Positions 4,201 to 30,752 of a DNA stretch of 61,020 nt are shown here, in pieces. Under the pieces are notes generated by a model, which made no database searches, was not told the origin of the DNA, and saw only the letters and a program-made list of their open reading frames with translations. Position numbers and translations under genes: made by a program. Source of the DNA: a bacterium (GTDB lineage: Bacteria > Patescibacteriota > Patescibacteriia > 2-01-FULL-39-33); contig JAKQDP010000054.1 in the NCBI GenBank assembly GCA_029558735.1, positions 1 to 61,020 on the forward strand, written 5' to 3'. Position 1 is the first letter of the stretch, and the number at the start of each line of letters is the position of its first letter.

Positions 4201-5116
4201 TTGTCAAAATCATCCATTCGGGCCGAATATTATTTTTGATCAATTGATTAAAAAATTTGGCTCGCCGAATCAGCTTGTCCCGTTTGGCGCCAGTCGCGCT
4301 TTCAATTTGGCTCTCCAATTCCTTAACTGTTTTATCCAGATCAATATTGGCCAACAACTCGCGAACCGACTCGGCGCCGGTATTAGCCTCAAAAACATGG
4401 CCATATTTCAGAGACAGGTCATGAAAGGTGTGCTCAGAAATAATTTTCAACGGTTTCAAATCCTTTATCTCGCTTTCGGCAAAAGTCATGGTGTTTTCCA
4501 ATTCACCCAATTTTTCTTCTTTGTGCCGAATGATCTCCACTATGGCCGGATCGCTATCCTTAGCCTCTTTGTTGTCGGCTTTATATTTTTCTATCTTACG
4601 ATTATAATCATTTTCAATTTGCTTGCGATATTGCTTGTATTCAGTCTTGATTTGTTCCAGAGTTTGCTTCTTTAATTCCTCATTGACTTTGGTAATAATA
4701 AAGCTGGCAAAATAAACCACCTTCTCCAAAGACTGAACCGACAAATCCAAGGCCAGACCGATTCGCGAGGGAACACCCCGCAAAAACCAAATATGCGACA
4801 CCGGCGCCGCCAGATCAATATGCCCCATTCGTTCCCGCCGGACAATCGACCTGGTCACTTCAACACCACACTTGTCGCAGACAATGCCTTTGTATCTGAT
4901 TTTTTTATATTTGCCACAATAGCACTCCCAATCTTTGACCGGCCCAAAAATACGTTCACAAAACAACCCGTCTTTCTCCGGTTTTTGGGTACGATAATTG
5001 ATCGTCTCCGGCTTAGTCACCTCGCCATGAGACCAATTATGAATATCATCAGGAGAGGCCAACCGTAATCTGATCACCTCAAACTGCAGATTATTTGTCT
5101 CTTGATTGAAAGCCAT
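1226..5116 (-). CDS. rpoC: DNA-directed RNA polymerase subunit beta'
   Basis: 1296 aa. Zinc motif CYCGKYKKIRYKGIVCDKCGVEV and catalytic NADFDGDQMAVH. Confidence 0.97.
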   Translation of the reverse strand: MAFNQETNNLQFEVIRLRLASPDDIHNWSHGEVTKPETINYRTQKPEKDGLFCERIFGPVKDWECYCGKYKKIRYKGIVCDKCGVEVTRSIVRRERMGHIDLAAPVSHIWFLRGVPSRIGLALDLSVQSLEKVVYFASFIITKVNEELKKQTLEQIKTEYKQYRKQIENDYNRKIEKYKADNKEAKDSDPAIVEIIRHKEEKLGELENTMTFAESEIKDLKPLKIISEHTFHDLSLKYGHVFEANTGAESVRELLANIDLDKTVKELESQIESATGAKRDKLIRRAKFFNQLIKNNIRPEWMILTTVPVIPPDLRPMVPLDGGRFATSDLNDLYRRVINRNNRLKQLLDLNAPEVITRNEKRMLQEAVDALIDNNARHGKTVVASTGQKRMLKSIADMLKGKQGRFRQNLLGKRIDYSGRSVIVVGPQLKIDECGLPKIMALELFKPFIISKLIKRGTVHNVRSANRYIEAGHDDIWDILEEVVKGAYVLLNRAPTLHRLGIQAFKPILIEGKAIQIHPLVCSAFNADFDGDQMAVHVPLTAGAVKEAAELMLSRHNLLKPAHGQPIVTPNQDIVWGCYYLTTVKEPAAIKYFASVNEAFLAKDRGLIGIQDKIKILFKKSPKSQEELLETTLGAILFNSILPPDYQFINYRVGKKELGRILGDILRQFGPETTVDLLDNLKVLGFKYLTNSAQSLGMDDLKNVAGREELVAKGNQELDSIEQQYQIGLLTDDERHEKIVEMWLGINNEILSRVKGALEEGNSVLSMIDSGARGSWGQLSQMIGMKGPVVNPAYEVIELPVKGNFKKGFDVLEFFISTHGARKGLTDTALRTSSAGYLTRRLVDVAQDMVVNAEDCKDKEGLLVTKEESEIMGENLVDRIIGRYAAQDITHPQNGKVLVAAGEIITEEVGQKLKEADIAQAVIRSALTCKNIRGVCQKCYGYDLAYNQPVKIGTAVGIIAAQSVGEPGTQLTMRTFHTGGVASEGDITQGLPRVEEIFEARSPKIKAIVADVAGVAHIKEGKREIKDQSGKTIITSGKQRILEIAYDQEAKNKINFPGGKQEVKLAVKDGQAVKVGQVLFTVGSEEKAVSNIDGQVKIEKDGVLLIGQELAIKEFIVPSVRSLMIKDGDKVEIGDQLTEGSLDLHQIYRLKGQEFTQKYIMREIQHIYSSQGQKLNDKHVEVIVRQIFSKVYIKESGDSDFMPGEVVEYVDVMEANRQLKKDKKQLAEFERLLLGITKVSLSTRSWLAAASFQETAKVLIDAAMTGKADDLSGLKENIIIGRLIPAGTGFHKARKK

Positions 5117-5150
5117 ATCTAAAAATTAATTTATCGGATTTATTAATTAA

Positions 5151-8100
5151 TTAATCTTCCTTGATTTTTTCTTCCCCAATAGAATTATCAACCAATTGGC
5201 CGTTCTCATCGAGTAACTCCACATTCAACGACAAACCTTTGAGCTCGCGGACCAACACATTAAAGCTTTCGGGAATATTCAAATTATTAATCGGTTCGCC
5301 TTTGATAATTGATTCATAGGTCTTGGATCGGCCAACCACATCATCCGATTTGATGGTCAACACTTCCTGCAAAGTATGGGCGGCGCCATAAGCTTCCAGC
5401 GCCCAGACTTCCATTTCACCAAAACGTTGACCGCCGAATTGGGCCTTGCCGCCGAGCGGCTGCTGGGTAATCAAAGAGTAGGGCCCAATTGACCGTTGAT
5501 GAATTTTATCTTCCACCAAATGATTCAATTTCAGCATATAAATATAACCAACCGTGCTCTGCTTATCAAATGGCTCGCCACTGCGACCGTCATAAAGCTG
5601 AATCCGGCCATCGCGATTAAAACCGGCCTCTGCCAATTGGTCACGAATAATCTCTTCATTAATACCATTAAATACCGGGGTGACCGCTTTATAGCCCAAA
5701 GTCTTGGCGGCTAAACCCAGGTGAGTCTCCAAAACTTGGCCTAAATTCATCCGCGACACCACGCCTAACGGCGACAAAATAATATCCACTGGCCTGCCGT
5801 CAGCCAAATGAGGCAGGTCTTCCACCGGCACCACTCGAGAAATTACTCCCTTATTGCCGTGGCGGCCGGCCATTTTATCACCAATTTGAATTTTTCGCAA
5901 AGAAGCAACTGTCACTTGAATCATCTTAATCATGCCCGAAGACAATTTATCGCCGTTTTCGCGGGAAAAGATTTTAATATCAATCACTTTGCCGGACGAG
6001 CCATGCTCCAAGTACAATGAAGAATCGCGGACATCTCTGGCTTTTTCGCCAAAAATAGCGCGCAATAATTTCTCTTCCGCCGATAACTCCGTCTCTCCCT
6101 TGGGAGTGATTTTACCCACCAAAATATCACCCGAGCGGACATTAGCGCCGATTCTGACAATGCCCTCTTCATCCAGATCTTTTAATTTCTCTTCGGAGAC
6201 ATTGGGAATGTCGGAAGTCACCACCTCCGGTCCCAATTTGGTCTCGCGAACTTCGCAAACATAATTTTCAATATGAATGGAAGAATAGCGATCTTGCTGA
6301 ATTAACCGCTCGGAAACAATAATTGCGTCTTCATAGTTGTAGCCCTGCCAAGGCATAAAAGCGACCAAAATATTCTTACCCAGGGCCAATTCGCCACGGT
6401 CAGTCGCCGGACCGTCGGCAAGCACTTCTCCTGACTTAACTTGTTGTCCTTTTTTGACAATTGGCGTCTGATTGATGCAGGTAGAATTATTAGACCGGAC
6501 AAATTTATTCAATCGATAAACATCAATTTTTTTATCTTTATTTAAAACTTCTATTTTATCACCGCTTAAACCAATCACTTCGCCGCCTTCGCGGGCAATA
6601 ATCAAATGGCCGGAATTATAAGCGGCTTTGCGTTCCACGCCAGTGCCGACTAGGGGCGCTTCCGGATTGATACAAGAGACGGCTTGACGTTGCATATTGG
6701 TGCCCATTAGGGCCCGCACCGCGTCATCATGCTCCAAAAACGGAATTAATGATGTGGCTACCGATACAATTTGATTGGGAGCGACATCCATGTAATCAAC
6801 ATTTTCCACATTAATAATGGTCGGATTTAATTTGACCCGGGCGCCAATTTTTTCGTCAATAAAATAGCCCTGCTCGTCAATCCGCGTGGTAAACGGCGTT
6901 GTCGTCATCTGGCTTTCTTCAAAAGCGTCCAAATAAACAATCTCACTGGTTACCCGAGCCCGGTTCCCTTCCTTAACCACCTTATAATATGGCGTCTCAA
7001 TAAAACCATAATCATTAACTTTGGCAAAAGAGGATAAATGTCCAACCAAGCCAATATTCGGACCTTCCGGCGTGGCAATCGGACAAATGCGGCCATAGTG
7101 AGTCTGGTGGACATCACGAACTTCAAAGCCGGCTCGATCGCGGGATAAACCGCCCGGGCCCATGGCTGACAACCGCCGCTTATGCTCCAATTCCGCCAGT
7201 GGATTGACCTGGTCCATAAATTGCGACAATTGACTGGACATAAAAAACTCTTTAACGGCGCTGATAACGGGCCGGGCATTAATCAATTTGCCTGGTGTTA
7301 AATTGGTGATATCCAGAGTGCTCATCCGATCCTTAATAATTCGCTCCATTCGAGCCAAACCGATCCGGAATTTATTTTGGACCAATTCACCCACCGCGCG
7401 AATCCGACGATTACCCAAGTGATCAATATCGTCAGCTTCTTCCTGGCTATTGTTGTATTTAATTATTTTCCTCAAAATATTAACAATGTCCTCTTTTAGC
7501 AATACTCTGGTCTCTTTATTAATCGGCAAATCCTGACCAAAACGCTGATTGAGCTTATAACGACCGACCCGATCAAAATCATAGCGGGAAAAATTGAAAA
7601 ACATATTATCAATCAACTGTTTGGCATTATCCGGAGTGGCCAAATCGCCTGGCCGAATTCTTTTATAAACTTCAATCAATCCTTCCGCTTCATTTTTGGA
7701 CACATCTTTATTAATGGTCGCTTCAATATATTTTCGGTTGGGGTCAGTATCAATATCCCTGAATAATTCCCTAATTTCATCATTGTTGGAATAACCAAAC
7801 GCCCGCAGCAACGCGGTCGCCGCCACTTTTCGTTTGCGGTCAATCTTGACCCAAATAACATTGTTATTGTCGGTTTCAAATTCCAACCACGAACCGCGGT
7901 TAGGAATTACTTTAGCACCATAAAGATCGCGACCAATTCCCGGCTGACTAGTAAAAAAAACACCAGCCGATCTGATTAGCTGGGAAACCACTACCCGTTC
8001 AATGCCATTAATAACAAAAGTGCCGCGGTCGGTCATCACCGGAAAATCACCCAAATAAATTTCTTGCTCAATTTCTTGGCTGGTCTTTTTATTCACCAAT

Positions 8101-12591: not shown

Positions 12592-15471
12592 TTAAATTTT
12601 TTCCAGCTTCAATTTTATTGTTTCGCCATTAACTGCTTCGGCTTCGCCATCATTAATCTGATTGACAATCTCACCGGCAATGGTCAACCGCTTTAGCTCC
12701 TCAATCCTTTCTGGAGCAGCCAAAACCTGATTGACCAATGGTCCGCTGCTCTCCCAGCTTATTTTAATCCGGTCACTAATGGTCAGTCCGGCTCGTTTGC
12801 GTCGGGCATTTATTGTCCGGACCAATTCTCTCGTCAAGCCTTCAGCCGCCAATTCCGGCGTAATCGCCGTATCCAATTCCACCCCGAGCTCATCAGCTGA
12901 TAAAAATTCTACCTGTTTGACATTGAGCTCTTCGGCCACTAAAGCGAAAAATTCTTCCGTCAACTTATTGGCTTTTTGATCTTTGGTTATCAACTTATTT
13001 AAGGGCTGGCGGATTTTGATGTTGGCTTGGGCCCGAGCCGCCAATCCCAGCTCGGCGATTTTGCGCGCCTGCTCCATCTGCCAAAGCAATTTTTTATCAA
13101 GCGCCTTCTGCTCCGCCTCCGGCCACTGCTCCAGATGGACTGATTCTTTCTTCCCGCCGACCGCCTGATAAATCCGCTCAGCGATAAACGGGGTAAACGG
13201 CGCCATCACTTGGGACAACTGAATCAGGGTGTGCCGGAAAGTGGCTAACGCTTGTCGCTTGTCGGCTTCGTCTGGCGATTTGAACCGATCGCGCGACCGC
13301 CGTAGCCACCAGGTGGAAAATTCATCAATAAACTGGGCGATCGGCCGTACCGCTCTAACCAACTCATAGCTATCCATTGCTTCGGTCACTTCTTGAATTA
13401 ATCCATTTAATTTCGCCACCAACCAGCGGTCCAAAATATTTTCCGGCTTGACCGCTATTGGCTCGCCCGGTTGTTCATATAGCTTGTAAAACTGCAAAAT
13501 ATTACCGGCCAGCATCACCACTTTCTGGAACGCTTCTTTCACTCCGGCTTCGGAAAAATTGAGATTTTCCGCCGCCATTACCGGCGAAGACAATAAATAA
13601 TAACGCAAAGCATCAGCGCCGTATTTATCCATAATCAATTCCGGCTCCGGATAATTTTTGAGCCGCTTAGCCATTTTTTTGCCATCCTCGGCTAGCACAA
13701 TGCCATTGGCAATAACATTATCAAAGGCCCGGCTTTGGTTGAGCGCCACTGCCAAGACATGCAAGTAATAAAACCAGGCTCGCGTCTGATCGACGCCCTC
13801 GGCGATAAATTCCGCCGGAAAACTTTCCTCAAATTTTTTCTCATTTTCAAAGGGATAATGGAACTGAGCATAAGGCATTGAGCCGGATTCGAACCAGCAA
13901 TCCAACACATCGGGAATGCGCTTCATGGCCTCGCCGCAGCCGCAAGGCACTGCGATTTTATCAATAAAATGTTTGTGCAAATCTTCAATTTTATCACCGC
14001 TGGCCTGTTCCAATTCCGCCACCGAGCCAAACACTTTCTGCTCGCCGCAGGAACTGCACACCCAAATCGGCATCACCGAGCCCCAAAACCGTTGACGGGA
14101 AATCGACCAATCGCGCGCCCCTTCCAGCCAGTTGCCAAATCGCCCATCCTTGATATGGCCGGGCACCCAATTAATCGGCTTGGCTTCTTTGAGCATCTTA
14201 TCTTTCAGCTCGGTCACTTTGACAAACCAAGACGAAGTGGCGTAATTGAGTAGCGGACTGTCGCAACGCCAGCAATGCGGATAAGCATGGCTGAATTTTT
14301 CCGCTTTGAACACCAGTCCTCGCTTGTCCAAAAATTCTACGACTTTCCGGTCGGTGGCCGAAGAATCTTTTTTCGGCTTCACTTCTTCGCCGGCAAAATC
14401 AATCACCTCGGATTTAAACTTTCCATCCATTCCGACATGCTGGATAAACGGCAAAGCTTGGGCTAACCCGAGATTCATATCTTCTTCGCCAAACGCCGGC
14501 GCAATATGGACTATGCCAGTGCCGTCTTCCACGGTGACAAACTCGGCCGCTACAATCGTATAAAAATTTTCTTTATTTTTTAAATTCTGCTCGAGATAAT
14601 AATCAAACAACGGCCGATATTTTTTCCCCACCAAATCTTTGACCTTGACCGGCCCAATAATTTCATATTGTTTGCCGGCAAAAATCGCTTCAAGATTTTG
14701 TCTAGCCAAAATATATTTTTTTTCTTCTGCTTTCACTTCAACATAATCAATCTTCTCGCCAATCGCCAACGCCACATTGCCAACCAGCGTCCATGGCGTT
14801 GTTGTCCAAGCCAAAACAAATCGGCCCGGCTCATCAACCAGCTCAAAGCTGGCGATAACCGACAAATCTTCAATGTCTTTATAGCCTTCGGTCACTTCCG
14901 ATTGCGATAAGGTCGTCTCGCAACGCGGACAAATATGCATTGACTTATAGCCCTGATAAATCAAACCCTTGTCCCACAACTGCTTGAATACCCACCAAAC
15001 GGTTTCCATAAAATCCTTGTCCATGGTTTTGTAGTCGTTGTCCATATCCACAAAACGTCCCAATCGCTCCACTACTCGCCGCCATTCCCGGGCGTAAGTC
15101 AGCACCTTGCTTCGGCAAGTCTCATTAAATTCGTCCACGCCAATTTCTTCTTCAATTTGTTTCTTGTTTTTTATTTTCAATTCTTCTTCAACAATATTTT
15201 CAATCGGCAGTCCGTGGCAATCCCAGCCCCACCGTCGCTCCACAAATCGCCCCTTCATTGTCTGATATCTGGGCACCGCGTCCTTCATCAAGCTGGCGAC
15301 AATGTGGCCGTAATGAGGCGTGCCAGTGGCAAACGGCGGCCCGTCATAAAAACTATAGCGCTTGCCGTCCTTGGTCGCTGCCAGTGTTTTCTCAAAAATT
15401 TTATTGTCTTGCCAAAATTTTTGTACTTTTTTCTCCTCCTCCACTAAAGGATTTAATTTTTGTTCCACCAT
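12592..15471 (-). CDS. ileS: isoleucine--tRNA ligase (type 2, eukaryote-like form)
   Basis: 959 aa. HYGH motif (PPFATGTPHYGH), KMSKS-type KMAKRLKNYPEP, CP1 editing domain. The N-terminal pattern is typical of the IleRS2 class. Confidence 0.93.
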   Translation of the reverse strand: MVEQKLNPLVEEEKKVQKFWQDNKIFEKTLAATKDGKRYSFYDGPPFATGTPHYGHIVASLMKDAVPRYQTMKGRFVERRWGWDCHGLPIENIVEEELKIKNKKQIEEEIGVDEFNETCRSKVLTYAREWRRVVERLGRFVDMDNDYKTMDKDFMETVWWVFKQLWDKGLIYQGYKSMHICPRCETTLSQSEVTEGYKDIEDLSVIASFELVDEPGRFVLAWTTTPWTLVGNVALAIGEKIDYVEVKAEEKKYILARQNLEAIFAGKQYEIIGPVKVKDLVGKKYRPLFDYYLEQNLKNKENFYTIVAAEFVTVEDGTGIVHIAPAFGEEDMNLGLAQALPFIQHVGMDGKFKSEVIDFAGEEVKPKKDSSATDRKVVEFLDKRGLVFKAEKFSHAYPHCWRCDSPLLNYATSSWFVKVTELKDKMLKEAKPINWVPGHIKDGRFGNWLEGARDWSISRQRFWGSVMPIWVCSSCGEQKVFGSVAELEQASGDKIEDLHKHFIDKIAVPCGCGEAMKRIPDVLDCWFESGSMPYAQFHYPFENEKKFEESFPAEFIAEGVDQTRAWFYYLHVLAVALNQSRAFDNVIANGIVLAEDGKKMAKRLKNYPEPELIMDKYGADALRYYLLSSPVMAAENLNFSEAGVKEAFQKVVMLAGNILQFYKLYEQPGEPIAVKPENILDRWLVAKLNGLIQEVTEAMDSYELVRAVRPIAQFIDEFSTWWLRRSRDRFKSPDEADKRQALATFRHTLIQLSQVMAPFTPFIAERIYQAVGGKKESVHLEQWPEAEQKALDKKLLWQMEQARKIAELGLAARAQANIKIRQPLNKLITKDQKANKLTEEFFALVAEELNVKQVEFLSADELGVELDTAITPELAAEGLTRELVRTINARRKRAGLTISDRIKISWESSGPLVNQVLAAPERIEELKRLTIAGEIVNQINDGEAEAVNGETIKLKLEKI

Positions 15472-24368: not shown

Positions 24369-25019
24369 TTAGAGTTTTTTAATTAAACGATATTGGCCAT
24401 GCAAACCATGCTTGTCTTCTGTTTTGGGATTTCTTATCTCTTTAAAAATTTTAAAACCGTATTTTTCATAAAACTTTATGGCTAATTTATTATTGATCGA
24501 AACATCTAAAAAACAATTATTATAATTTTTTAATTTTGCTTTTTTAAAAGCGTTTTCTAGCAACATACCCCCGATTCCTTTGCCTTGCATTTCTGGCATG
24601 ACAGCCAAATTGGCTATGTAGTAAGAATCCGGCTGTAGTTTCTTAATGAATTTATCTATTTGATAATTTCTATAAATCATTTTTGCAACTTGTATAGGGT
24701 TATGTCGCTTGATTATATAGGCATCGTTAAAAAATTGATGCACCTTTTTATCCTTTAGGGCATATCCAACTTCTAAGCCAACAATTTTACCATCAAACTC
24801 TGCCACCTCTGCAAATTTATGGGAAAAAATACCTTTGTTTTTTTCAAATAATATTTTTAATAACTGAAAAATTTTCTCTTGTTCATAGGAAAAGAGATAG
24901 TCAAAAAAATAATCACCAGTAGAATAAATCAGCTTATTCGCCGGATCAGAATGACTCGGCGAAGCAGGTTTGATAATAATCTCCTGACCCATAGAATTAT
25001 AGAATAAATAGTAATTCAA
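24369..25019 (-). CDS. GNAT family N-acetyltransferase
   Basis: 216 aa. Acetyl-CoA motif MPEMQGKGIGGMLLENAFKKAK. The track start is TTG, so ATG at 24992 is an alternative. The stop abuts the HK start. Confidence 0.8.
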   Translation of the reverse strand: MNYYLFYNSMGQEIIIKPASPSHSDPANKLIYSTGDYFFDYLFSYEQEKIFQLLKILFEKNKGIFSHKFAEVAEFDGKIVGLEVGYALKDKKVHQFFNDAYIIKRHNPIQVAKMIYRNYQIDKFIKKLQPDSYYIANLAVMPEMQGKGIGGMLLENAFKKAKLKNYNNCFLDVSINNKLAIKFYEKYGFKIFKEIRNPKTEDKHGLHGQYRLIKKL

Positions 25020-25177: not shown

Positions 25178-25206
25178 TTGACTTGATATTTGAAATATAT
25201 TAATAT
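25178..25206 (+). promoter_or_regulatory. sigma70-like promoter of the radical SAM locus
   Basis: TTGACT (25178-25183), 17 nt, TAATAT (25201-25206). Confidence 0.5.
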
Positions 25207-25255
25207 CTGCTATGAAACTGGTACTTTTTAAACAAAGAAAGGCAGGGATGATATC

Positions 25256-26656
25256 ATGTCTCTTTGCATGGATAAAATCTACAAAAAAACTCGTTTCCTC
25301 CAAACTGTTCGCGAAGACAATCTCGTGGCCATTTGGCACTCTCTTTTTGGCAACCCAAAAACTGTATCGCCTGAGACCATGGACTTCATTGAAAAATTTT
25401 CAATACCCAAAACATTGCGCTCGGTTGTTGGAGACTCAATAAATGCAGAAACAATAAATGTGTTAAATGAGCTGGTTGATTGCTATTTTCTCACTCTGGA
25501 AGACTTTGACGACAGGACTTTACTGAAAGACAAGATAAAACAGCGTGAAGAAAAAATTATCAACGGTTCACTAATAGATTACCTAGAATTGATTATGAGC
25601 GAAACTTGCAACTTCGCTTGTGATTACTGCATTCACTTCAAAAACCTTGGAGGATCTGACCGCATGAATAGCCACCAAAAATTCATGCGACTTAAAATAG
25701 CCAAACAGGCGATCGACTGGTATCTGGCCATACTTCGTCAAAATGGAAAACAAAAGGCTACGATTAATTTCGGCGGTGGCGAACCTCTATTAGTTTGGGA
25801 TACTATCCTACAGGTTATTAAATATTGCGATGAAACATACGGCAATGAATTTGAATTCAGCTTTTCGATCAACACAAATGCTTCTCTCATAACCCAACAA
25901 ATTGCAATGGTGTTAAAGAAGTATCGTGTAAATGTTGCCTCAAGTCTGGATGGGTTGCGTGAAGGAAACGACAAAGTCAGATTAACTAAATCCGGTGGTG
26001 GCACATTTTCTCAGGTGATCCGTGGATTTGAGACCTTGGCATTAGTGGGCCATCCGATTGACGGGATTGCAGTTACCGTAACCGAGAAAAATTTTTATGA
26101 TATCGATGAATCGATTATCGATTGGGCAATTGATCACGATATGACAAATGTAAGAATCGATATTGATGTAATCGGCTTGGTGGATATACCAATCGATCTC
26201 ATCGTGAGAAAACTAATAAGAATCCGCAGATATGCAGCATCCCGAAAAATTGATGTACCAGGTTTTTGGTCCCGCCCAGCCGAAAATCTCGGTCTATCAA
26301 CTCTTAATGAGCCCGTCGCATTTTGTGGCGGAATTCGAGGAAACAGTGTATGTGTAAATCCATCTGGCAATATTTATGCGTGCGGTTATAGCGCCAATAA
26401 GCTCGGAAATATATCAGATGGTAGATTATTTTACGCCCCTGGCAGTTTTTATCATTCTTTGATTAGACAGCATCTAACTGGTATGACAAAAATGTGTCAA
26501 GGGTGTATGATTGAGGGGCAATGTGGCGGAGGCTGCATGATCACACATGAGTTTTCTTTAAAGGCTGAGAATGCTAAAATTGAACGCATGTGCGACTTCT
26601 ATATTCGCATGACTGAGGAGATAATCCGAGATCAATTGCGAAGTGCAGCAGTCTGA
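25256..26656 (+). CDS. radical SAM/SPASM-domain peptide-modifying enzyme (putative RiPP maturase)
   Basis: 466 aa. CxxxCxxC cluster CNFACDYC about 110 aa from the N-terminus. C-terminal SPASM signature read directly: C..GNIYAC (G-x4-C), then CQGCMIEGQCGGGC (C-x2-C-x5-C-x3-C). Confidence 0.9.
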   Translation: MSLCMDKIYKKTRFLQTVREDNLVAIWHSLFGNPKTVSPETMDFIEKFSIPKTLRSVVGDSINAETINVLNELVDCYFLTLEDFDDRTLLKDKIKQREEKIINGSLIDYLELIMSETCNFACDYCIHFKNLGGSDRMNSHQKFMRLKIAKQAIDWYLAILRQNGKQKATINFGGGEPLLVWDTILQVIKYCDETYGNEFEFSFSINTNASLITQQIAMVLKKYRVNVASSLDGLREGNDKVRLTKSGGGTFSQVIRGFETLALVGHPIDGIAVTVTEKNFYDIDESIIDWAIDHDMTNVRIDIDVIGLVDIPIDLIVRKLIRIRRYAASRKIDVPGFWSRPAENLGLSTLNEPVAFCGGIRGNSVCVNPSGNIYACGYSANKLGNISDGRLFYAPGSFYHSLIRQHLTGMTKMCQGCMIEGQCGGGCMITHEFSLKAENAKIERMCDFYIRMTEEIIRDQLRSAAV

Positions 26657-26696
26657 TTTTCATTCTCAATTTGCACTGGAGAGGAGGTGATGCCAA

Positions 26697-26801
26697 ATGC
26701 GCGATCAGACAAGCAGTCAGCGATTGACGGGCCTGAGCATTAAGGCACTGACGATGCCCAAGTCTCTTGCGACCTGCAAGGCACCAAGCAACTGCCATTA
26801 A
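26697..26801 (+). CDS. untracked 34-aa candidate precursor peptide
   Basis: GGAGG (26683-26687) lies 9 nt before ATG 26697. Translation: MRDQTSSQRLTGLSIKALTMPKSLATCKAPSNCH, TAA at 26799-26801. It starts 41 nt after the rSAM stop and is followed by a terminator. Confidence 0.5.
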   Translation: MRDQTSSQRLTGLSIKALTMPKSLATCKAPSNCH

Positions 26802-26815
26802 TGCAAGCAAGCATC

Positions 26816-26855
26816 GGAGGCTGGAAAAAAGAATTTTCAGCCTCCCTTTTATTTT
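26816..26855 (+). terminator. intrinsic terminator after the small peptide ORF
   Basis: GGAGGCTG (26816-26823) pairs with CAGCCTCC (26838-26845), then CTTTTATTTT. Confidence 0.75.
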
Positions 26856-26881
26856 CTAAAACATTAATATAGAATAAAAGT

Positions 26882-27364
26882 ATGACTGGGATTTTATTAA
26901 GAAAAATCAGCACTAAAGACAAAAAGTATTTTGCCAAATGGTGGCGGGACGCAGATTTAATCAAGTTAACAAGCGGTTGCCTTGATCCTATCTCAGATAA
27001 AGACGTCGATAAATACTTTTCATCAATGATTGACAGCAAGGTTGATCATCATTTTATGATTATTATTGATAAAAAAGTAATTGGCCATATAGTTCTCAGC
27101 CAAAGAAAAAATGGCTGGTATGAAACCCAGATTATAATTGGCGACAAGAATTGTTGGGGTAGGGGCTATGGCACGGAGGCAATTAAAAAACTGCTTCGTA
27201 AAGCGAAAAACATGGGTATTTCAAAAGTATATCTTGAAGTCAGGCCAACCAATGTCAGGGCAATTACCGCTTATAAAAAGAGTGGATTTTTAGAGAAAGG
27301 CATTATTAAATACCCAGACAACCCCTACTTGCCAGAAACACTTAGAATGGAGATAAATCAATGA
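26882..27364 (+). CDS. GNAT family N-acetyltransferase (RimJ/RimL-like)
   Basis: 160 aa. WGRGYGTEAIKKLLRKAK acetyl-CoA-binding motif and YKKSGF tail. Confidence 0.85.
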   Translation: MTGILLRKISTKDKKYFAKWWRDADLIKLTSGCLDPISDKDVDKYFSSMIDSKVDHHFMIIIDKKVIGHIVLSQRKNGWYETQIIIGDKNCWGRGYGTEAIKKLLRKAKNMGISKVYLEVRPTNVRAITAYKKSGFLEKGIIKYPDNPYLPETLRMEINQ

Positions 27365-27382: not shown

Positions 27383-28603
27383 CTAAATAATCTTCAAATC
27401 CTTGCCTATCTTTTCCATATTTTCCAATAAATAATCGATCTGCTTTCTGGTGTGGGTGGCCAAGGTGGTAAGGCGAAGGCGTTCTTGGCCTTCAGCAACT
27501 GCCGGCCGCCTGACAGCCGGAGCCAAAATGCCGGCGGCAAGCAACTTGTCTGAAAAAACAATGGCATTCTTTTCCGAGTGTAGAAGCGGTGGCACAATCG
27601 GCATAAAATCAGCTCCCAAAACTTCAAAACCCATTCTTTTTAATTCGCTTCTTAAGTATGAAGCGTTTTCTTTTGTTTTTTCTCGCAAACTATCGCCATT
27701 TTTTATCAGCTCCAATGACTTTATCAATCCGGCGACAACACAGGGAAGAATCGGATCGGAAAAAATATAACTCCTAGCTGTCACCCGCAAATATTCCGAC
27801 AAGTCAGATGTGGTGGTCGTCACAAACCCGCCGATACTGCCCCAGGCCTTAGTAAAGCTACCCATAATCACATCAACATCCTTATTAACGCCGAGATGAT
27901 GACACAATCCCTCTCCATGGGGACCAAGAACGCCAGTACCATGCGAATCGTCAACATAAACCAAAGCATCATATTCTCCGGCTAGTTTTACAATTGTCTT
28001 CAAATCGGCAAAATCGCCGTCCATACTGAAAACGCCATCAGTAATAATCAACTTCCGTTTTTTCTTATGTTCAGCTAGTAATCTCTCTAAATCTTTCATA
28101 TCATTGTGCTTATATATCTCCCTTTCCGCGCGCGATAAACGAACAGAATCAATAATACTGGCGTGATTGATTTCATCGCTCAAAATAACACCGGCCTGAT
28201 TGCCAAAAGGCAATGGCATTTTATAAGGAAATGGGTCAACAAGCATCCTAATCACACCGGCGTTGGCCAAAAAACCGGAAGAAAAAGTGATGGAGTCGGC
28301 CACTTCCATAAATTCAGCAATCTTTTTCTCTAGCTCAACCTGGACATCGAGAGTGCCGGACAGCATACGAGTACTGCCGGAACCGACGCCATATTTCCTA
28401 ACTCCGTCAATTACCGCTTCCGCCATTTCCTTGTTGCCTGCCAAGCCCAGATAATTATTTGAACAAAAAGTCAAATATTTCTTGCCATTAATGAGAACCT
28501 CGGGGTGATGCGATGGTCCGGAGACGATATTGATCTTGGGATACAATTTGCCTAATTTTAAAATTTTGACAATCCTGCCAAAGTATTTTAATGAATTTTT
28601 CAT
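27383..28603 (-). CDS. alpha-oxoamine synthase family PLP enzyme (BioF/Kbl/Spt/CqsA family)
   Basis: 406 aa. NNYLGL, HASIIDS, DDSHGTG and PLP lysine SFTKAWG. The subfamily cannot be assigned by eye. Confidence 0.9.
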   Translation of the reverse strand: MKNSLKYFGRIVKILKLGKLYPKINIVSGPSHHPEVLINGKKYLTFCSNNYLGLAGNKEMAEAVIDGVRKYGVGSGSTRMLSGTLDVQVELEKKIAEFMEVADSITFSSGFLANAGVIRMLVDPFPYKMPLPFGNQAGVILSDEINHASIIDSVRLSRAEREIYKHNDMKDLERLLAEHKKKRKLIITDGVFSMDGDFADLKTIVKLAGEYDALVYVDDSHGTGVLGPHGEGLCHHLGVNKDVDVIMGSFTKAWGSIGGFVTTTTSDLSEYLRVTARSYIFSDPILPCVVAGLIKSLELIKNGDSLREKTKENASYLRSELKRMGFEVLGADFMPIVPPLLHSEKNAIVFSDKLLAAGILAPAVRRPAVAEGQERLRLTTLATHTRKQIDYLLENMEKIGKDLKII

Positions 28604-28607
28604 TTGT

Positions 28608-28789
28608 TTATCTGATTAATTGTAAATTTATAATTTTTTTGTGCCTCCCGGTGCCGGAGCCGGCGTCAAAAATCCGGTCGCCGTCTTTCACGCTCGTAGC
28701 CTCAACGATATCCCGCAATAATTCTTGATAAGGAATGGCTTTGTTTAAAATGTCATAACTTTTAAAATACTTTCACCAAAATTTTTCAT
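28608..28789 (-). pseudogene. remnant of a class I SAM-dependent methyltransferase (frameshifted, truncated after motif I)
   Basis: Minus strand reads ..KSYDILNKAIPYQELLRDIVEATSVKDGDRIFDAGSGTGRHKKIINLQLIR*. The MKNFGESILK start is in another frame across a T4A4 run. Only about 58 codons remain, versus about 200-250 for intact family members. Confidence 0.5.
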
Positions 28790-28828
28790 CTAACATATCT
28801 TAAGATAATTTTTAATTTTCAAACAGAT

Positions 28829-28945
28829 AAATTCCAAATTTAAAATCTCAAGCTCCAAATAAATCACAATTTTACAAATCCTAAATGATCATTTTTAAAA
28901 TTTGAAATTTATTTGTTATTTGTAATTTTGAATTTATGATTTCAC
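28829..28945. repeat. AT-rich palindromic IVS-like element (no cargo)
   Basis: The right arm contains ATTTATTTGTTATTTGTAATTTTGAATTT, an exact 29-nt match to the reverse complement of 30760-30800. The left arm contains CAAGCTCCAAATAAAT, the reverse complement of 18977-18992. Confidence 0.6.
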
Positions 28946-29006
28946 TATCAGGTTCCGAAGCCAGGCGGGGGCAAGCCCCGCCCCTACAGGCGAGGAGACC
29001 TCGCCC

Positions 29007-30752
29007 CTACACGTACATCCCCTCAATCTCTTTTTGATAATGACCTTCTATCACCTGACGGCGAAGCTTCAAGGTCGGAGTGAGCTCGTCCCGTTCTTGA
29101 GAAAATTCATCAGTCAGTAAAACAAATTTTCTTATCCGCTCATAATCAGCCAAATCCTGATTGATTTTATCCAACCGCTGGCCAAACAGCTCCAAAATAT
29201 CCGGCCGATTGGCCAATTTGCTTGGCACACCCAAGGGCAATCCTTTTTCCTTGAGAAAAATCCCCACTTCCTGCCAATCCGGCACAATCAACGCCGAAAC
29301 AAATTTGCGCCGATGGGCTATTGCCATTGATTGAGCCACAAATCGGTCGATATTAATTTTTTGCTCTAGTGCTTCCGGCCAAATATTTTTGCCACCACTG
29401 GTCAGCATCATTTCTTTTTTCCGGCCGATGATTACCAATCGATTGTCCCGGCCAATAAAGCCGAGGTCGCCGGTCTTAAACCAGCCGTCATCAGTAAAAG
29501 CTTCTTTGGTCGCCTCCTGGTCGTTAAAATAACCTCGGAAAACATTTGGTCCCTTGACCAAAATTTCCTTGTCGCCGGAAATTTTTATTTCCACCCCGTC
29601 AACTGCATAGCCGACCGTGCCGAATTTGACAGCTTCGGCCCGATTGACCGCCACCACCGGCGCCGTTTCGGTCAAGCCGTAGCCCTCGACAATCAAAATC
29701 CCCAACTTTTGGAAAAACTTGGCAATCTTCGGGTCCAGACTGGCACCGCCCGACACTGTCAGCCGAAGACGGCCGCCAAGCTGGGCGCGTATTTTTTTAA
29801 ATACCAATAAATCACCAAGCTTATAACCCGGACTGCCCTGACGCTGGCGCAAGGCCCAATGAAATATATTTTTCTTAATCTTTGATCCGCTAGAAACTTT
29901 GTCCCAAATGATATCATAGAATTTTTCAAATACCCGCGGCACGGCAATCATCACTGTCGGCCGGACTTCTTTCAAATTTTGAGCCAATTGCTTAAAGCCC
30001 TCACCATAGGCAATGGTGGCGCCAAATAGTAGCGGCGTATAATATCCGGCGGTTCGCTCCAAAACATGGGACAAGGGTAGAAAAGACAAAAAAACATCGC
30101 CCTTTTTGACCGGCACCATATCATTAATCGCCGCCACATTGCTCAAAAAATTACCATGGCTAAGCGCTACTCCCTTGGGCAGGCCGGTAGTGCCCGAAGT
30201 ATAAATAATACTGGCAATGTCGTCGGATTTGACTGCCGGCAAAGACAAATCGTCAGCCGGATTTGTGCCACTGGCAATAAATTCATCCCAACTCAAACAC
30301 AATCCGCTACAGGAATCGATCGTTTCCCGGTTGACTTTTTCCATAACGATAATTTTCTCCGGCTTAGCCAAACCAGCTTGACCGATTAATACTTTATTGA
30401 GTAGAGACTCGTCAGATACGAATAAAATCTTAGCTCGGCAATGATCCAAAATATAATTGATGCTCTTGGCGCTCAAAGTGGTATGGATAGGCACGCTGAT
30501 GGCGCCAAGCGCCATCGCCGCCAAATCCGCCATCACCCACTCCGGCCGGCCATTAGATAAAATCGCCACCCGATCGCGCCGCTTGACGCCCAAGACATTC
30601 AAGGCCGAAACCACTCGCCTGATCTCTTGCGCCAATTCCTTGTAACTAAGGGAAAAATAAACTCCGTCTTGCTTGTATTTTAAAACCGGCCGATTAGCTT
30701 TCTGTTCGGCCAGGGCGAAAAAATTTGCGGGAATAGTTTTTTGTAAATCCAT
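29007..30752 (-). CDS. long-chain fatty acid--CoA ligase (AMP-binding enzyme, FadD-like)
   Basis: 581 aa. AMP-binding motif YTSGTTGLPKGV, plus GYGLTET and TGDLG..D motifs. Confidence 0.9.
   Translation of the reverse strand: MDLQKTIPANFFALAEQKANRPVLKYKQDGVYFSLSYKELAQEIRRVVSALNVLGVKRRDRVAILSNGRPEWVMADLAAMALGAISVPIHTTLSAKSINYILDHCRAKILFVSDESLLNKVLIGQAGLAKPEKIIVMEKVNRETIDSCSGLCLSWDEFIASGTNPADDLSLPAVKSDDIASIIYTSGTTGLPKGVALSHGNFLSNVAAINDMVPVKKGDVFLSFLPLSHVLERTAGYYTPLLFGATIAYGEGFKQLAQNLKEVRPTVMIAVPRVFEKFYDIIWDKVSSGSKIKKNIFHWALRQRQGSPGYKLGDLLVFKKIRAQLGGRLRLTVSGGASLDPKIAKFFQKLGILIVEGYGLTETAPVVAVNRAEAVKFGTVGYAVDGVEIKISGDKEILVKGPNVFRGYFNDQEATKEAFTDDGWFKTGDLGFIGRDNRLVIIGRKKEMMLTSGGKNIWPEALEQKINIDRFVAQSMAIAHRRKFVSALIVPDWQEVGIFLKEKGLPLGVPSKLANRPDILELFGQRLDKINQDLADYERIRKFVLLTDEFSQERDELTPTLKLRRQVIEGHYQKEIEGMYV

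Follow-up and report, generated by a model that had tools for sequence, protein, structure and literature searches.

A 61,020-nucleotide stretch of a Patescibacteria genome (assembly GCA_029558735.1, contig JAKQDP010000054.1; hereafter, the window) carries what is probably a three-gene, RiPP-type cassette that moves horizontally among genomes. It consists of a gene for a radical SAM/SPASM enzyme, a gene for a 34-amino-acid peptide, and a third gene encoding a transferase. We put the probability of this explanation as a whole at about 0.7, and the peptide is likely the substrate of the enzyme. The cassette recurs in more than 50 genomes, mostly from the candidate phyla radiation (CPR; Patescibacteria). 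These organisms have tiny genomes and are generally assumed to have little secondary metabolism, and their interactions with hosts and competitors are largely unknown. Neither the enzyme nor the peptide has a description in NCBIfam or in the searchable literature, in agreement with an earlier interpretation of the same DNA (the sequence-only reading), which had assigned the peptide to no described RiPP family. Namely, six diverse peptides of the family gave no match in NCBIfam at E <= 10, and the paper mapping TvgB (main text and supplements) and an RRE survey paper hold nothing on the cassette. We consider it a solid lead to a new family of modified peptides.

Features of the enzyme

The enzyme gene (25256..26656, + strand) encodes a predicted radical SAM/SPASM peptide maturase of 466 amino acids, according to Pfam, NCBIfam, an alignment with TigE, and an AF2 model. 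The sequence-only reading had pointed to a CNFACDYC motif and a SPASM C terminus, and both are present. The first, C118-N-F-A-C122-D-Y-C125, is a CX3CX2C motif whose three cysteines are invariant across 20 homologues, and the protein matches the Pfam Radical_SAM model (PF04055) with 53.9 bits (cut-off, 29.5; E=3e-14), which places it in the radical SAM superfamily. The second has the cysteine layout of a SPASM domain (C357-x13-G371-x4-C376, then C414-x2-C417-x5-C423-x3-C427, and C446), again invariant in the 20 homologues. Since the Pfam SPASM model gave no match to the enzyme at E <= 0.1, the SPASM assignment relies on this motif and on the alignment of the region with its counterparts in TigE and CteB. 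Approximate domain limits are residues 1-100 for an RRE-like domain, 110-330 for the radical SAM core, and 350-450 for the SPASM region, which holds eight cysteines.

TigE, a cyclopropylglycine synthase with an RRE at residues 3-85 (PMC10878394), is the closest solved structure (8VPO; profile E=1e-46, TM 0.73-0.76), followed by CteB. Identity to TigE is only about 20%, yet the alignment is full-length, starting at residue 10. AF2 models residues 1-100, with pLDDT values of 82-94, as strands (E8-11, E15-20, E23-28, E32-37) followed by helices (H39-49, H54-58, H64-75), a predicted beta-beta-beta/alpha-alpha-alpha winged helix. The model and the alignment favor the earlier suggestion that the N-terminal extension has an RRE-like fold. 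Overall, an RRE/radical SAM/SPASM architecture is largely supported by sequence comparison and structure prediction.

The best NCBIfam match is PapB (NF047865), at 138.7 bits against a cut-off of 340. PapB was also the top NCBIfam HMM for 20/20 homologues tested, with scores of a similar order and a best E value of 2.8e-43. The anaerobic sulfatase maturase (anSME) HMM (TIGR03942) ranks second, scoring 100.6 bits where 349 are required, and the SCIFF maturase HMM (TIGR03974) gives 87.1 bits against a cut-off of 425. The enzyme reaches the cut-off of no curated NCBIfam family, those for ranthipeptides and sactipeptides included; thus, no chemistry can be transferred to it by homology. Its best NCBIfam matches are all peptide maturases, and its nearest relatives are TigE, CteB, and PapB-type HMMs, not sulfatase maturases, which would have counted against the sequence-only reading. 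A sulfatase maturase was considered and rejected, given the score below the anSME cut-off, the absence of a sulfatase gene among the neighbors, and the RRE-like domain.

Upstream of the enzyme gene, a sigma-70-like promoter match, TTGACT-N17-TAATAT (25178..25206, + strand), agrees with the consensus at 9/12 positions; such matches occur in the region about as often as expected from shuffled sequence. Its first position, 25178, is also where the interval delimited by the sequence-only reading begins.

Signature residues around Aux I

Cyclopropyl synthases (TvgB/TigE; RadicalSAM.org cluster 1-1-201) strictly conserve a GYW motif, in which the Tyr is a ligand of Aux I, and a Y339F variant is reported to be inactive (PMC10878394). 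In the window enzyme, and in all but one of the readable peptide-linked orthologues, this motif reads GFW. A further cysteine, Cys366 in our enzyme, occurs within the pattern NS-x-C-[VI]-x-P in all but four of the peptide-linked enzymes with a readable motif, the pattern search having failed in those four. TigE has a Ser at this position, and the alignment places Cys366 in the same loop as C261/C263 of anSME. The nearest outgroup enzyme (L060; 32% identity) has GYW and an Asp at the position of the extra cysteine and is not accompanied by such a peptide; in a search of representative genomes, the extra cysteine disappears below about 440 bits.

CteB leaves an iron site of Aux I open for the substrate thiolate (Aux I ligation, PMC10878394). 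From the position of Cys366, this residue may complete the ligation of Aux I, as in anSME, and such ligation may remove the open site that CteB uses for its substrate cysteine.

A conserved cysteine-containing peptide gene

The peptide gene (26697..26801, + strand) starts 40 nt after the enzyme stop codon and encodes MRDQTSSQRLTGLSIKALTMPKSLATCKAPSNCH, 34 amino acids in length. A Shine-Dalgarno sequence, GGAGG, read from the sequence at 26683..26687 (+ strand), lies 9 nt before its ATG, and an intrinsic terminator follows the gene directly (26816..26855, + strand), with a 12-bp stem (6 GC pairs) at 26816-26845 and then the T-rich CTTTTATTTT. Its GC content is 0.54-0.56, versus about 0.41 for the enzyme gene. 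The small ORF, its ribosome-binding site, the strong terminator, and the higher GC content had all been claimed beforehand, and each was confirmed.

Orthologous loci were searched for a comparable ORF downstream of the enzyme gene. Counting loci with DNA downstream of that gene, 54/54 encode a small basic peptide of 24-38 amino acids, with 2-3 cysteines, that ends in T-C-x-x-P-S-N-C-(H). A short putative precursor gene adjacent to, and conserved together with, a modifying enzyme is what a RiPP cassette calls for, and it is found at every one of these loci. In nearly all of them, the peptide starts 5-60 nt 3' of the enzyme stop codon, while three predicted starts overlap the 3' end of the enzyme gene. 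Equivalent AGGAG or GAGGTGA sequences precede the ATG in other loci, where the translated upstream context reads RKEVNAM. The window peptide has a basic, leader-like part with the motif h-K-h-K-x-L/M-P and a core, T26-C27-K-A-P30-S31-N32-C33-H34, in which both Cys, the Ser, and the Asn do not vary across the family and the Thr and Pro hardly do.

The conserved residues are encoded by varied synonymous codons (four for Thr, four for Pro, and AGC, AGT, or TCT for Ser), and all three stop codons occur. This variation under an invariant amino acid sequence shows selection at the protein level. A chance ORF or an RNA element can be set aside, since Rfam is empty at the site and the codons vary synonymously. 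By these sequence criteria, the small unannotated ORF is a real gene. It may also be highly expressed. The C-ending fraction of NNY codons is 0.73 in the peptide gene versus 0.42 in the enzyme gene, and for most of the 54 loci the folding energy of the 70 nt 3' of the peptide stop codon is about -20 to -30 kcal/mol (-10 to -42 over all loci); high expression of a small gene would fit both the biased codon usage and the recurring terminator hairpin. The JGI gene calls for this contig omit the 34-amino-acid ORF, and only 1/10 peptide sequences tested was present among 15 billion predicted proteins; the family is therefore invisible to protein-based mining.

The third gene and the gene neighborhood

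The peptide gene is followed in the window by a gene for a GNAT N-acetyltransferase of 160 amino acids (26882..27364, + strand; Acetyltransf_3/Acetyltransf_1). It scores 65 bits with PF13302 (cut-off, 25.4) and 62.8 with PF00583 (cut-off, 20.7), as a member of the GNAT superfamily does, and reaches the cut-off of no specific NCBIfam equivalog (RimI, 55 versus 86.4). Among solved structures, it comes closest to AAC(6') and polyamine acetyltransferases. About 23 loci, that of the window included, carry a GNAT gene in this slot, and about 31 carry an ANT/Lnu-like nucleotidyltransferase, a two-domain Pol-beta protein of about 238 amino acids, within the ANT/Lnu size class. Altogether, in about 52/54 loci the gene directly after the peptide, on the same strand, belongs to one of the two families, although the flanks are otherwise unrelated. 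The exceptions are L033, with neither family, and L025, with a methyltransferase in the slot. The cassette GNATs form one orthologous group, with 41-72% identity. The choice of third gene is independent of the core sequence and also varies inside a single clade whose members share 75% identity or more. At the superfamily level, both types resemble enzymes that inactivate cationic antibiotics.

According to the sequence-only reading, the GNAT genes on both sides could belong to the system. Both are GNATs by Pfam, and the downstream one stands, with its counterparts in about 23 loci; the upstream one (24369-25019) was discarded because it lies beside no orthologue and is missing even in the closest relative (L001). 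Two other readings of the neighborhood found no support. The nucleotidyltransferase is unlikely to be an MntA/HEPN toxin-antitoxin element, as it is a two-domain protein of the size given above that shares a likeness in the core motif only, and anti-phage defense is unsupported, as PADLOC returns only generic similarities to a viperin core and a minimal nucleotidyltransferase. Around the enzyme gene lie genes for a histidine kinase, GNATs, an aminotransferase, and an acyl-CoA ligase. Within 5 kb of the cassette, neither a leader peptidase nor an exporter is conserved, which leaves leader removal and export without support.

Distribution and probable horizontal transfer

Orthologues of the enzyme, with 38-73% identity, occur in about 60 of 185,579 species-representative genomes, a patchy distribution. 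The genes that flank the cassette are unrelated from locus to locus. Members of the clade with at least 75% identity have a GC content of 0.45-0.53 in the enzyme gene (mostly 0.47-0.53) and of 0.33-0.51 in those flanks that are long enough to use. These comparisons of gene content and composition show signals of mobility, and horizontal movement of the cassette among CPR genomes is part of the explanation that we consider probable.

Proposed mechanism and alternatives

In the mechanism we propose, the RRE-like N-terminal domain would bind the basic leader of the peptide at its conserved h-K-h-K-x-L/M-P-x-x-K motif, the radical SAM core would remove a hydrogen atom, and the two auxiliary Fe-S clusters of the SPASM domain would complete the modification within T-C-x-x-P-S-N-C-(H). 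The likeliest product would be a small macrocycle with a cross-link centered on one or both invariant cysteines, either a thioether that joins Cys to Thr, Ser, Asn, or His, or the outcome of an oxidized cysteine that condenses further. Cysteine-centered cross-linking is our leading guess, held tentatively at clearly less than even odds, and naming thioether chemistry of the sacti- or ranthipeptide type is a guess. The product may be exported. The GNAT or ANT/Lnu-like nucleotidyltransferase would act on the cationic product, giving the producer self-immunity or tailoring the peptide; we see about an even chance that the third gene has either of these roles. A bolder proposal is that the system represents new radical SAM/SPASM chemistry, in which the Aux I Tyr ligand of cyclopropyl synthases has been exchanged for Cys to act on a Cys-Pro-Ser-Asn-Cys core, in a RiPP class largely specific to CPR that yields a cationic, bioactive product for interaction with hosts or competitors, with producers protected by interchangeable acetyl- or nucleotidyltransferases. 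Taken as a whole, this proposal is rather unlikely.

Other chemistries must be weighed against cysteine-centered cross-linking. The enzyme could act in the manner of anSME and oxidize Cys (or Ser) in the core. The resulting formylglycine or thioaldehyde would then condense with a neighboring nucleophile, so that no thioether would form by a direct radical route. The eight SPASM cysteines and the extra cysteine in the C261/C263 loop, suggestive of a fully Cys-ligated Aux I, fit this idea, as does the rank of the anSME HMM as second-best NCBIfam match; moreover, the core C-x-x-P-S resembles C-x-P-S-R, the sulfatase motif. However, the HMM score is far below the cut-off, the core spacing is one residue off from C/S-x-P/A-x-R and lacks the Arg, and anSME has no RRE and would call for a sulfatase gene nearby. 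We regard this route as unlikely. Still less probable by a wide margin is cyclopropyl synthesis, in which, as with TigE/TvgB, an aliphatic side chain of the peptide would acquire a C-C bond. TigE is the best match in both sequence and structure, but the GYW Tyr is Phe in nearly all members, the exchange made in the reportedly inactive Y339F variant (PMC10878394), and the precursors have neither repeats nor an invariant Val or Ile. With the altered motif and a single core without repeats, we exclude the enzyme from the cyclopropyl synthases.

The cassette as a whole invites a different reading, in which the peptide would serve as scaffold for a cofactor or small molecule used inside the cell, like PQQ or mycofactocin, instead of being exported as a bioactive peptide, and the GNAT or nucleotidyltransferase would be a biosynthetic step. 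The modified core would lie at the extreme C terminus, as in MftA, the cassette has no exporter or protease, and its two-gene core is compact and sits in reduced genomes. Yet a cofactor pathway is hard to reconcile with the patchy spread and signs of horizontal transfer, the lack of a conserved partner oxidoreductase or peptidase, and a third gene that swaps between two unrelated chemistries and is missing in L033; we deem it improbable. The third gene could also be unrelated to the peptide, an ordinary gene for antibiotic resistance or housekeeping that is carried along with the cassette. The strong terminator between the peptide and GNAT genes means that cotranscription of the latter is not assured, both enzyme types are common as stand-alone resistance genes, and L033 and L025 do without them. 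Against this, one of two families keeps the slot and the strand in nearly every locus despite the unrelated flanks, and the GNATs are orthologous. We doubt that the association is incidental and favor a role in immunity or tailoring for the third gene.

If the cassette does define a new RiPP class of CPR bacteria, it would rank with the earliest conserved secondary-metabolite systems linked to these episymbionts. It is compact, strongly conserved, and mobile, and because its product could be made from two coexpressed genes, it offers an experimentally tractable molecule from this lineage. An enzyme that sits next to the cyclopropyl synthases but has exchanged the Tyr ligand for Phe and gained a cysteine also lends itself to asking how the ligation of Aux I directs SPASM chemistry, and the alternation of GNAT and nucleotidyltransferase in one slot points to a possible logic of immunity or tailoring that can be tested in vitro.

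Comparison with known systems

The closest known enzymes are TigE and TvgB (PDB 8VPO; PMC10878394, PMC9062424), which have the same layout as the window enzyme, with an N-terminal RRE (in our enzyme a predicted RRE-like domain), a radical SAM barrel, a SPASM domain with two auxiliary clusters, and an aligned G-x-W motif. They differ in the Tyr of that motif, which is Phe in our enzyme, and in having Ser in place of the extra cysteine. What TigE makes on Val or Ile is a C-C bond and not a thioether (PMC10878394). TigE and TvgB substrates consist of TVGG/TIGSVS repeats, whereas the cassette peptide has a single, nonrepetitive, cysteine-containing core, and TigE clusters include a transporter, with none conserved in the cassette.

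PapB-type ranthipeptide maturases and CteB/SCIFF-type maturases are likewise radical SAM/SPASM enzymes that act on short, cysteine-containing peptides, and the SCIFF system, too, is a two-gene core spread through a single lineage that has neither a protease nor an exporter of its own. In contrast, the Cys/Asp-Glu patterns of PapB substrates are missing from the cassette core, the cassette peptides lack the six-Cys-in-45 pattern of SCIFF precursors, and the Aux I site, open in CteB, may be closed by the extra cysteine. The anSMEs share with the window enzyme an eight-Cys SPASM domain with an additional Cys in a hairpin loop, and their substrates a Cys followed by Pro-Ser; they differ in lacking an RRE, in the spacing of the substrate motif, and in their association with a sulfatase gene, which is not near the cassette.

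Finally, the third gene recalls the acetylation of processed microcin C by MccE/RimL-type enzymes and the AAC and ANT enzymes of aminoglycoside resistance, in that a GNAT or nucleotidyltransferase of the antibiotic-inactivating type lies beside biosynthetic genes. AAC and ANT are alternative chemistries of aminoglycoside resistance, and two alternative chemistries likewise share one slot here. This likeness to self-immunity holds at the superfamily level, and tailoring is equally compatible with it: lasso peptides, for example, occur in acetylated or nucleotidylylated form.

Organization of the cassette and conservation of the peptide gene

In the window, a radical SAM/SPASM enzyme gene (25256..26656, + strand; 466 aa) is followed 40 nt past its stop by a 34-aa peptide gene (MRDQTSSQRLTGLSIKALTMPKSLATCKAPSNCH; 26697..26801, + strand) and then by a GNAT gene (26882-27364). 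The enzyme contains C118-N-F-A-C122-D-Y-C125 and, in its C-terminal part, G371-x4-C376 and C414-x2-C417-x5-C423-x3-C427, together with C357, C366, and C446. A GGAGG (26683-26687) lies nine bases upstream of the peptide ATG, and a 12-bp hairpin with a T-rich tail (26816-26845) follows the gene. The GC content of the peptide ORF is 0.54-0.56 versus ~0.41 for the enzyme gene. On the other side, a divergent gene encodes a 216-aa protein (24369-25019, - strand) that, like the downstream one, is a GNAT by Pfam. Every feature described in the sequence-only reading was confirmed. The window is chromosomal, as it carries rpoB, rpoC, and several aminoacyl-tRNA synthetase genes. A tRNA-Gly(CCC) predicted by ARAGORN (13874-13953, - strand) is probably a false positive; it lies inside a 959-aa class I aminoacyl-tRNA synthetase ORF (12592-15471) and is absent from Rfam.

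Several hundred proteins are closely related to the enzyme (56-73% identity for the best 120), and those bearing a name come almost exclusively from CPR/Patescibacteria metagenome-assembled genomes (MAGs). In a scan of 185,579 species-representative genomes, ~60 loci proved orthologous, with 38-73% identity, before identity fell to 25% in the matches that came next. Small Cys-containing ORFs, which the earlier reading had proposed to seek downstream of orthologous enzymes, are consistently there: an ORF of 24-38 aa adjoins the enzyme gene in 54/54 loci for which downstream DNA was available. With few exceptions, its start lies 5-60 nt past the enzyme stop; in three cases, the predicted start overlaps the 3' end of the enzyme gene. 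In one locus (L023; 7296-7418, - strand), the peptide gene is inverted and located downstream of a nucleotidyltransferase gene rather than directly after the enzyme.

The consensus of the 54 peptides is h-K-h-K-x-[L/M]-P-x-x-K-x-[L/M]-x-T-C-[Q/K/R]-x-P-S-N-C-H-stop, with a net charge of +3 to +11; C, S, N, and C of the core are invariant, and T and P nearly so. These residues are encoded by synonymous codons (four for Thr, four for Pro, AGC/AGT/TCT for Ser, and both codons for Cys and for Asn), and all three stop codons occur, indicating selection on the protein and not on the RNA. An Rfam scan of the cassette region found no RNA family. The small ORF is thus a real gene tied to the enzyme. 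C-ending two-fold NNY codons make up 73% in peptide genes versus 42% in the adjacent enzyme genes, and the 70 nt past the peptide stop fold with ~-20 to -30 kcal/mol in most loci (full range, -10 to -42). Both features fit a short, highly expressed transcript end and explain the GC excess of the peptide gene noted in the sequence-only reading. Gene callers overlook the ORF: it was not called by JGI gene calling on the window's own contig, and just one of 10 peptide sequences tested was present, unnamed, among 15 billion predicted proteins. A 78-aa antisense ORF overlapping the peptide gene (26574-26810, - strand) was rejected as a gene, since its clustering with a counterpart in the closest relative (L001) simply reflects the conserved peptide sequence on the opposite strand.

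The enzyme as a probable peptide maturase

Pfam recognizes only the radical SAM core of the enzyme. Every good NCBIfam match is a peptide maturase, each far below its own cutoff, the best being the PapB-type ranthipeptide maturase (138.7 bits); 20 homologs gave the same outcome. By sequence, the closest solved structure is TigE (8VPO; profile E = 1e-46, residues 10-458), followed by CteB, ChlB, and anSME. The AlphaFold model (mean pLDDT, 70.5; 82-94 over residues 1-100) matches TigE over its full length in Foldseek (TM, 0.73-0.76), and its N-terminal domain is arranged as strand-strand-strand(-strand)-helix-helix-helix. TigE, which carries an RRE at residues 3-85, synthesizes methyl-cyclopropylglycine. 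A strictly conserved GYW defines its family; the Tyr of this motif ligates auxiliary cluster I (Aux I), and Y339F is inactive (PMC10878394).

This GYW aligns with an invariant G336-F337-W338 in our enzyme family; a further invariant residue of the family, Cys366, occupies a position that is Ser in TigE. Since anSME has a Cys in the same loop, Aux I may be fully Cys-ligated here. In CteB, by contrast, an Aux I site is left open for the substrate thiolate, an opening that the predicted Aux I of our enzyme may lack. Wherever the motif could be read, peptide-linked enzymes almost always combine GFW with NS-x-C-[VI]-x-P, and this signature tracks the presence of the peptide. Namely, the nearest outgroup enzyme (L060, 426-1898, from a Deltaproteobacteria MAG; 32% identity) has GYW and an Asp at the extra-Cys position, and its locus has no PSNC peptide; L060 may represent the step at which the substrate and the Aux I ligand changed in concert.

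When 1.84 billion representative proteins were searched exhaustively, 378 scored below E = 1e-30. Only about the top 20-25 of these, with more than ~440 bits, have the extra Cys; at lower scores it is lost, and the x of G-x-W becomes variable (T, M, Y, F, S). The enzyme thus forms a separate subfamily of a broader group of RRE-rSAM-SPASM maturases, adjacent to the cyclopropyl synthases but outside them. Membership tests placed the enzyme outside the cyclopropyl synthases, PapB, SCIFF, and anSME alike. In some distant relatives of 1,120-1,160 aa (P0158, P0163, P0175, P0181, P0183, and similar matches), the RRE-rSAM-SPASM unit makes up the C-terminal portion of a much larger fusion, with two or three matched stretches.

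Third genes and mobility of the cassette

All-against-all clustering of neighbors within 5 kb of the orthologous loci revealed only two recurrent families, both directly past the peptide gene on the same strand. One is a GNAT of ~160 aa, present in 23 loci including the window (41-72% mutual identity); among solved structures, it is closest to AAC(6') enzymes and polyamine/streptothricin acetyltransferases. The other is a Pol-beta nucleotidyltransferase of ~238 aa (31 loci) with invariant G-S and D-x-D, related at core-motif level only to kanamycin and lincosamide nucleotidyltransferases. The choice between them is independent of the peptide core and changes even among enzymes of one clade that share at least 75% identity. 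The downstream GNAT, earlier proposed to tailor the product or protect the producer, is a recurrent partner, albeit one of two alternatives. The upstream GNAT, assigned the same roles, was rejected: it has no counterpart beside any orthologous cassette, including that of L001, and probably bears no relation to the system. PADLOC matches it weakly to PDC-M11A (E = 1.5e-6).

A few loci have an additional class I SAM methyltransferase (Methyltransf_11/25, TehB-like) or a ~200-aa protein without a Pfam match, the latter past the nucleotidyltransferase (L004, 1915-2553; L010, between peptide and GNAT; L025, 6607-7242; L026, 7284-7892; L028; L035; L043, 4869-5495). One locus has only the methyltransferase, and another has no third gene. 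No conserved protease or transporter was found within 5 kb. In L016, L023, L026, L035, and L036, additional radical SAM/SPASM paralogs are encoded less than 5 kb from the cassette, accompanied by an uncharacterized ~232-aa protein family without a Pfam match (e.g., L037, 8245-8943); these genes may represent further peptide-modification loci in the same genomes. Next to the window's cassette, a class I/II aminotransferase (Aminotran_1_2) adjoins a long AMP-binding acyl-CoA ligase (27383-30752, - strand), a pairing that may reflect sphingolipid-type chemistry or lipid-linked amino acids, either of which would be unexpected in a reduced genome.

Flanking genes vary between loci. In the tight clade (enzymes at least 75% identical: L002-L018, L022, L024, and L025; cassette at ~5000-7300 in each), MAGs with unrelated flanks carry either the GNAT or the nucleotidyltransferase, and the GC content of the enzyme gene is 0.45-0.53 (mostly 0.47-0.53) versus 0.33-0.51 in flanks of usable length. 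Such differences indicate that the cassette was transferred horizontally in recent times and that its third gene was swapped. Together with the patchy presence of the family, in only ~60 of the 185,579 genomes, they suggest that the cassette is accessory and moves horizontally, and speak against a housekeeping function. In the window, cassette and flanks are equal in GC (0.41), suggesting that the cassette has long resided there.

Possible chemistry and relation to known systems

The best-supported reading is a RiPP-type enzyme and peptide pair, in which the RRE-like domain would bind the basic leader and the radical SAM/SPASM domains would modify the invariant C-terminal core. The sequence-only interpretation was essentially right apart from the roles given to the two GNATs, and the thioether chemistry it suggested is unproven. 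Homology does not reveal the reaction, since the nearest relative, the best HMM, and the Cys complement each point elsewhere. TigE forms cyclopropanes on Val or Ile, whereas the peptide core has neither; PapB forms thioethers; and the Cys complement resembles that of anSME. A Cys-centered cross-link is the most likely chemistry, at roughly one chance in three. Next comes an anSME-like oxidation of Cys followed by condensation, which we consider unlikely. As for the third slot, two unrelated group-transfer enzymes, both of an antibiotic-inactivating kind, would find their simplest explanation in a shared cationic product on which both act, for self-immunity or alternative tailoring; MccE, AAC, and ANT, which give self-immunity against their respective substrates, offer a possible parallel.

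Neither the enzyme nor the peptide is covered by an NCBIfam model, and we found no description of the cassette in openly searchable full-text literature. A new modified-peptide family in an under-explored lineage is a well-supported lead, experimentally easy to pursue, and poses the question of an Fe-S ligand swap. The cassette nevertheless fits the established RiPP scheme and would operate as other radical SAM RiPP systems do; SCIFF, too, is a two-gene core spread across a lineage and lacking both protease and exporter.
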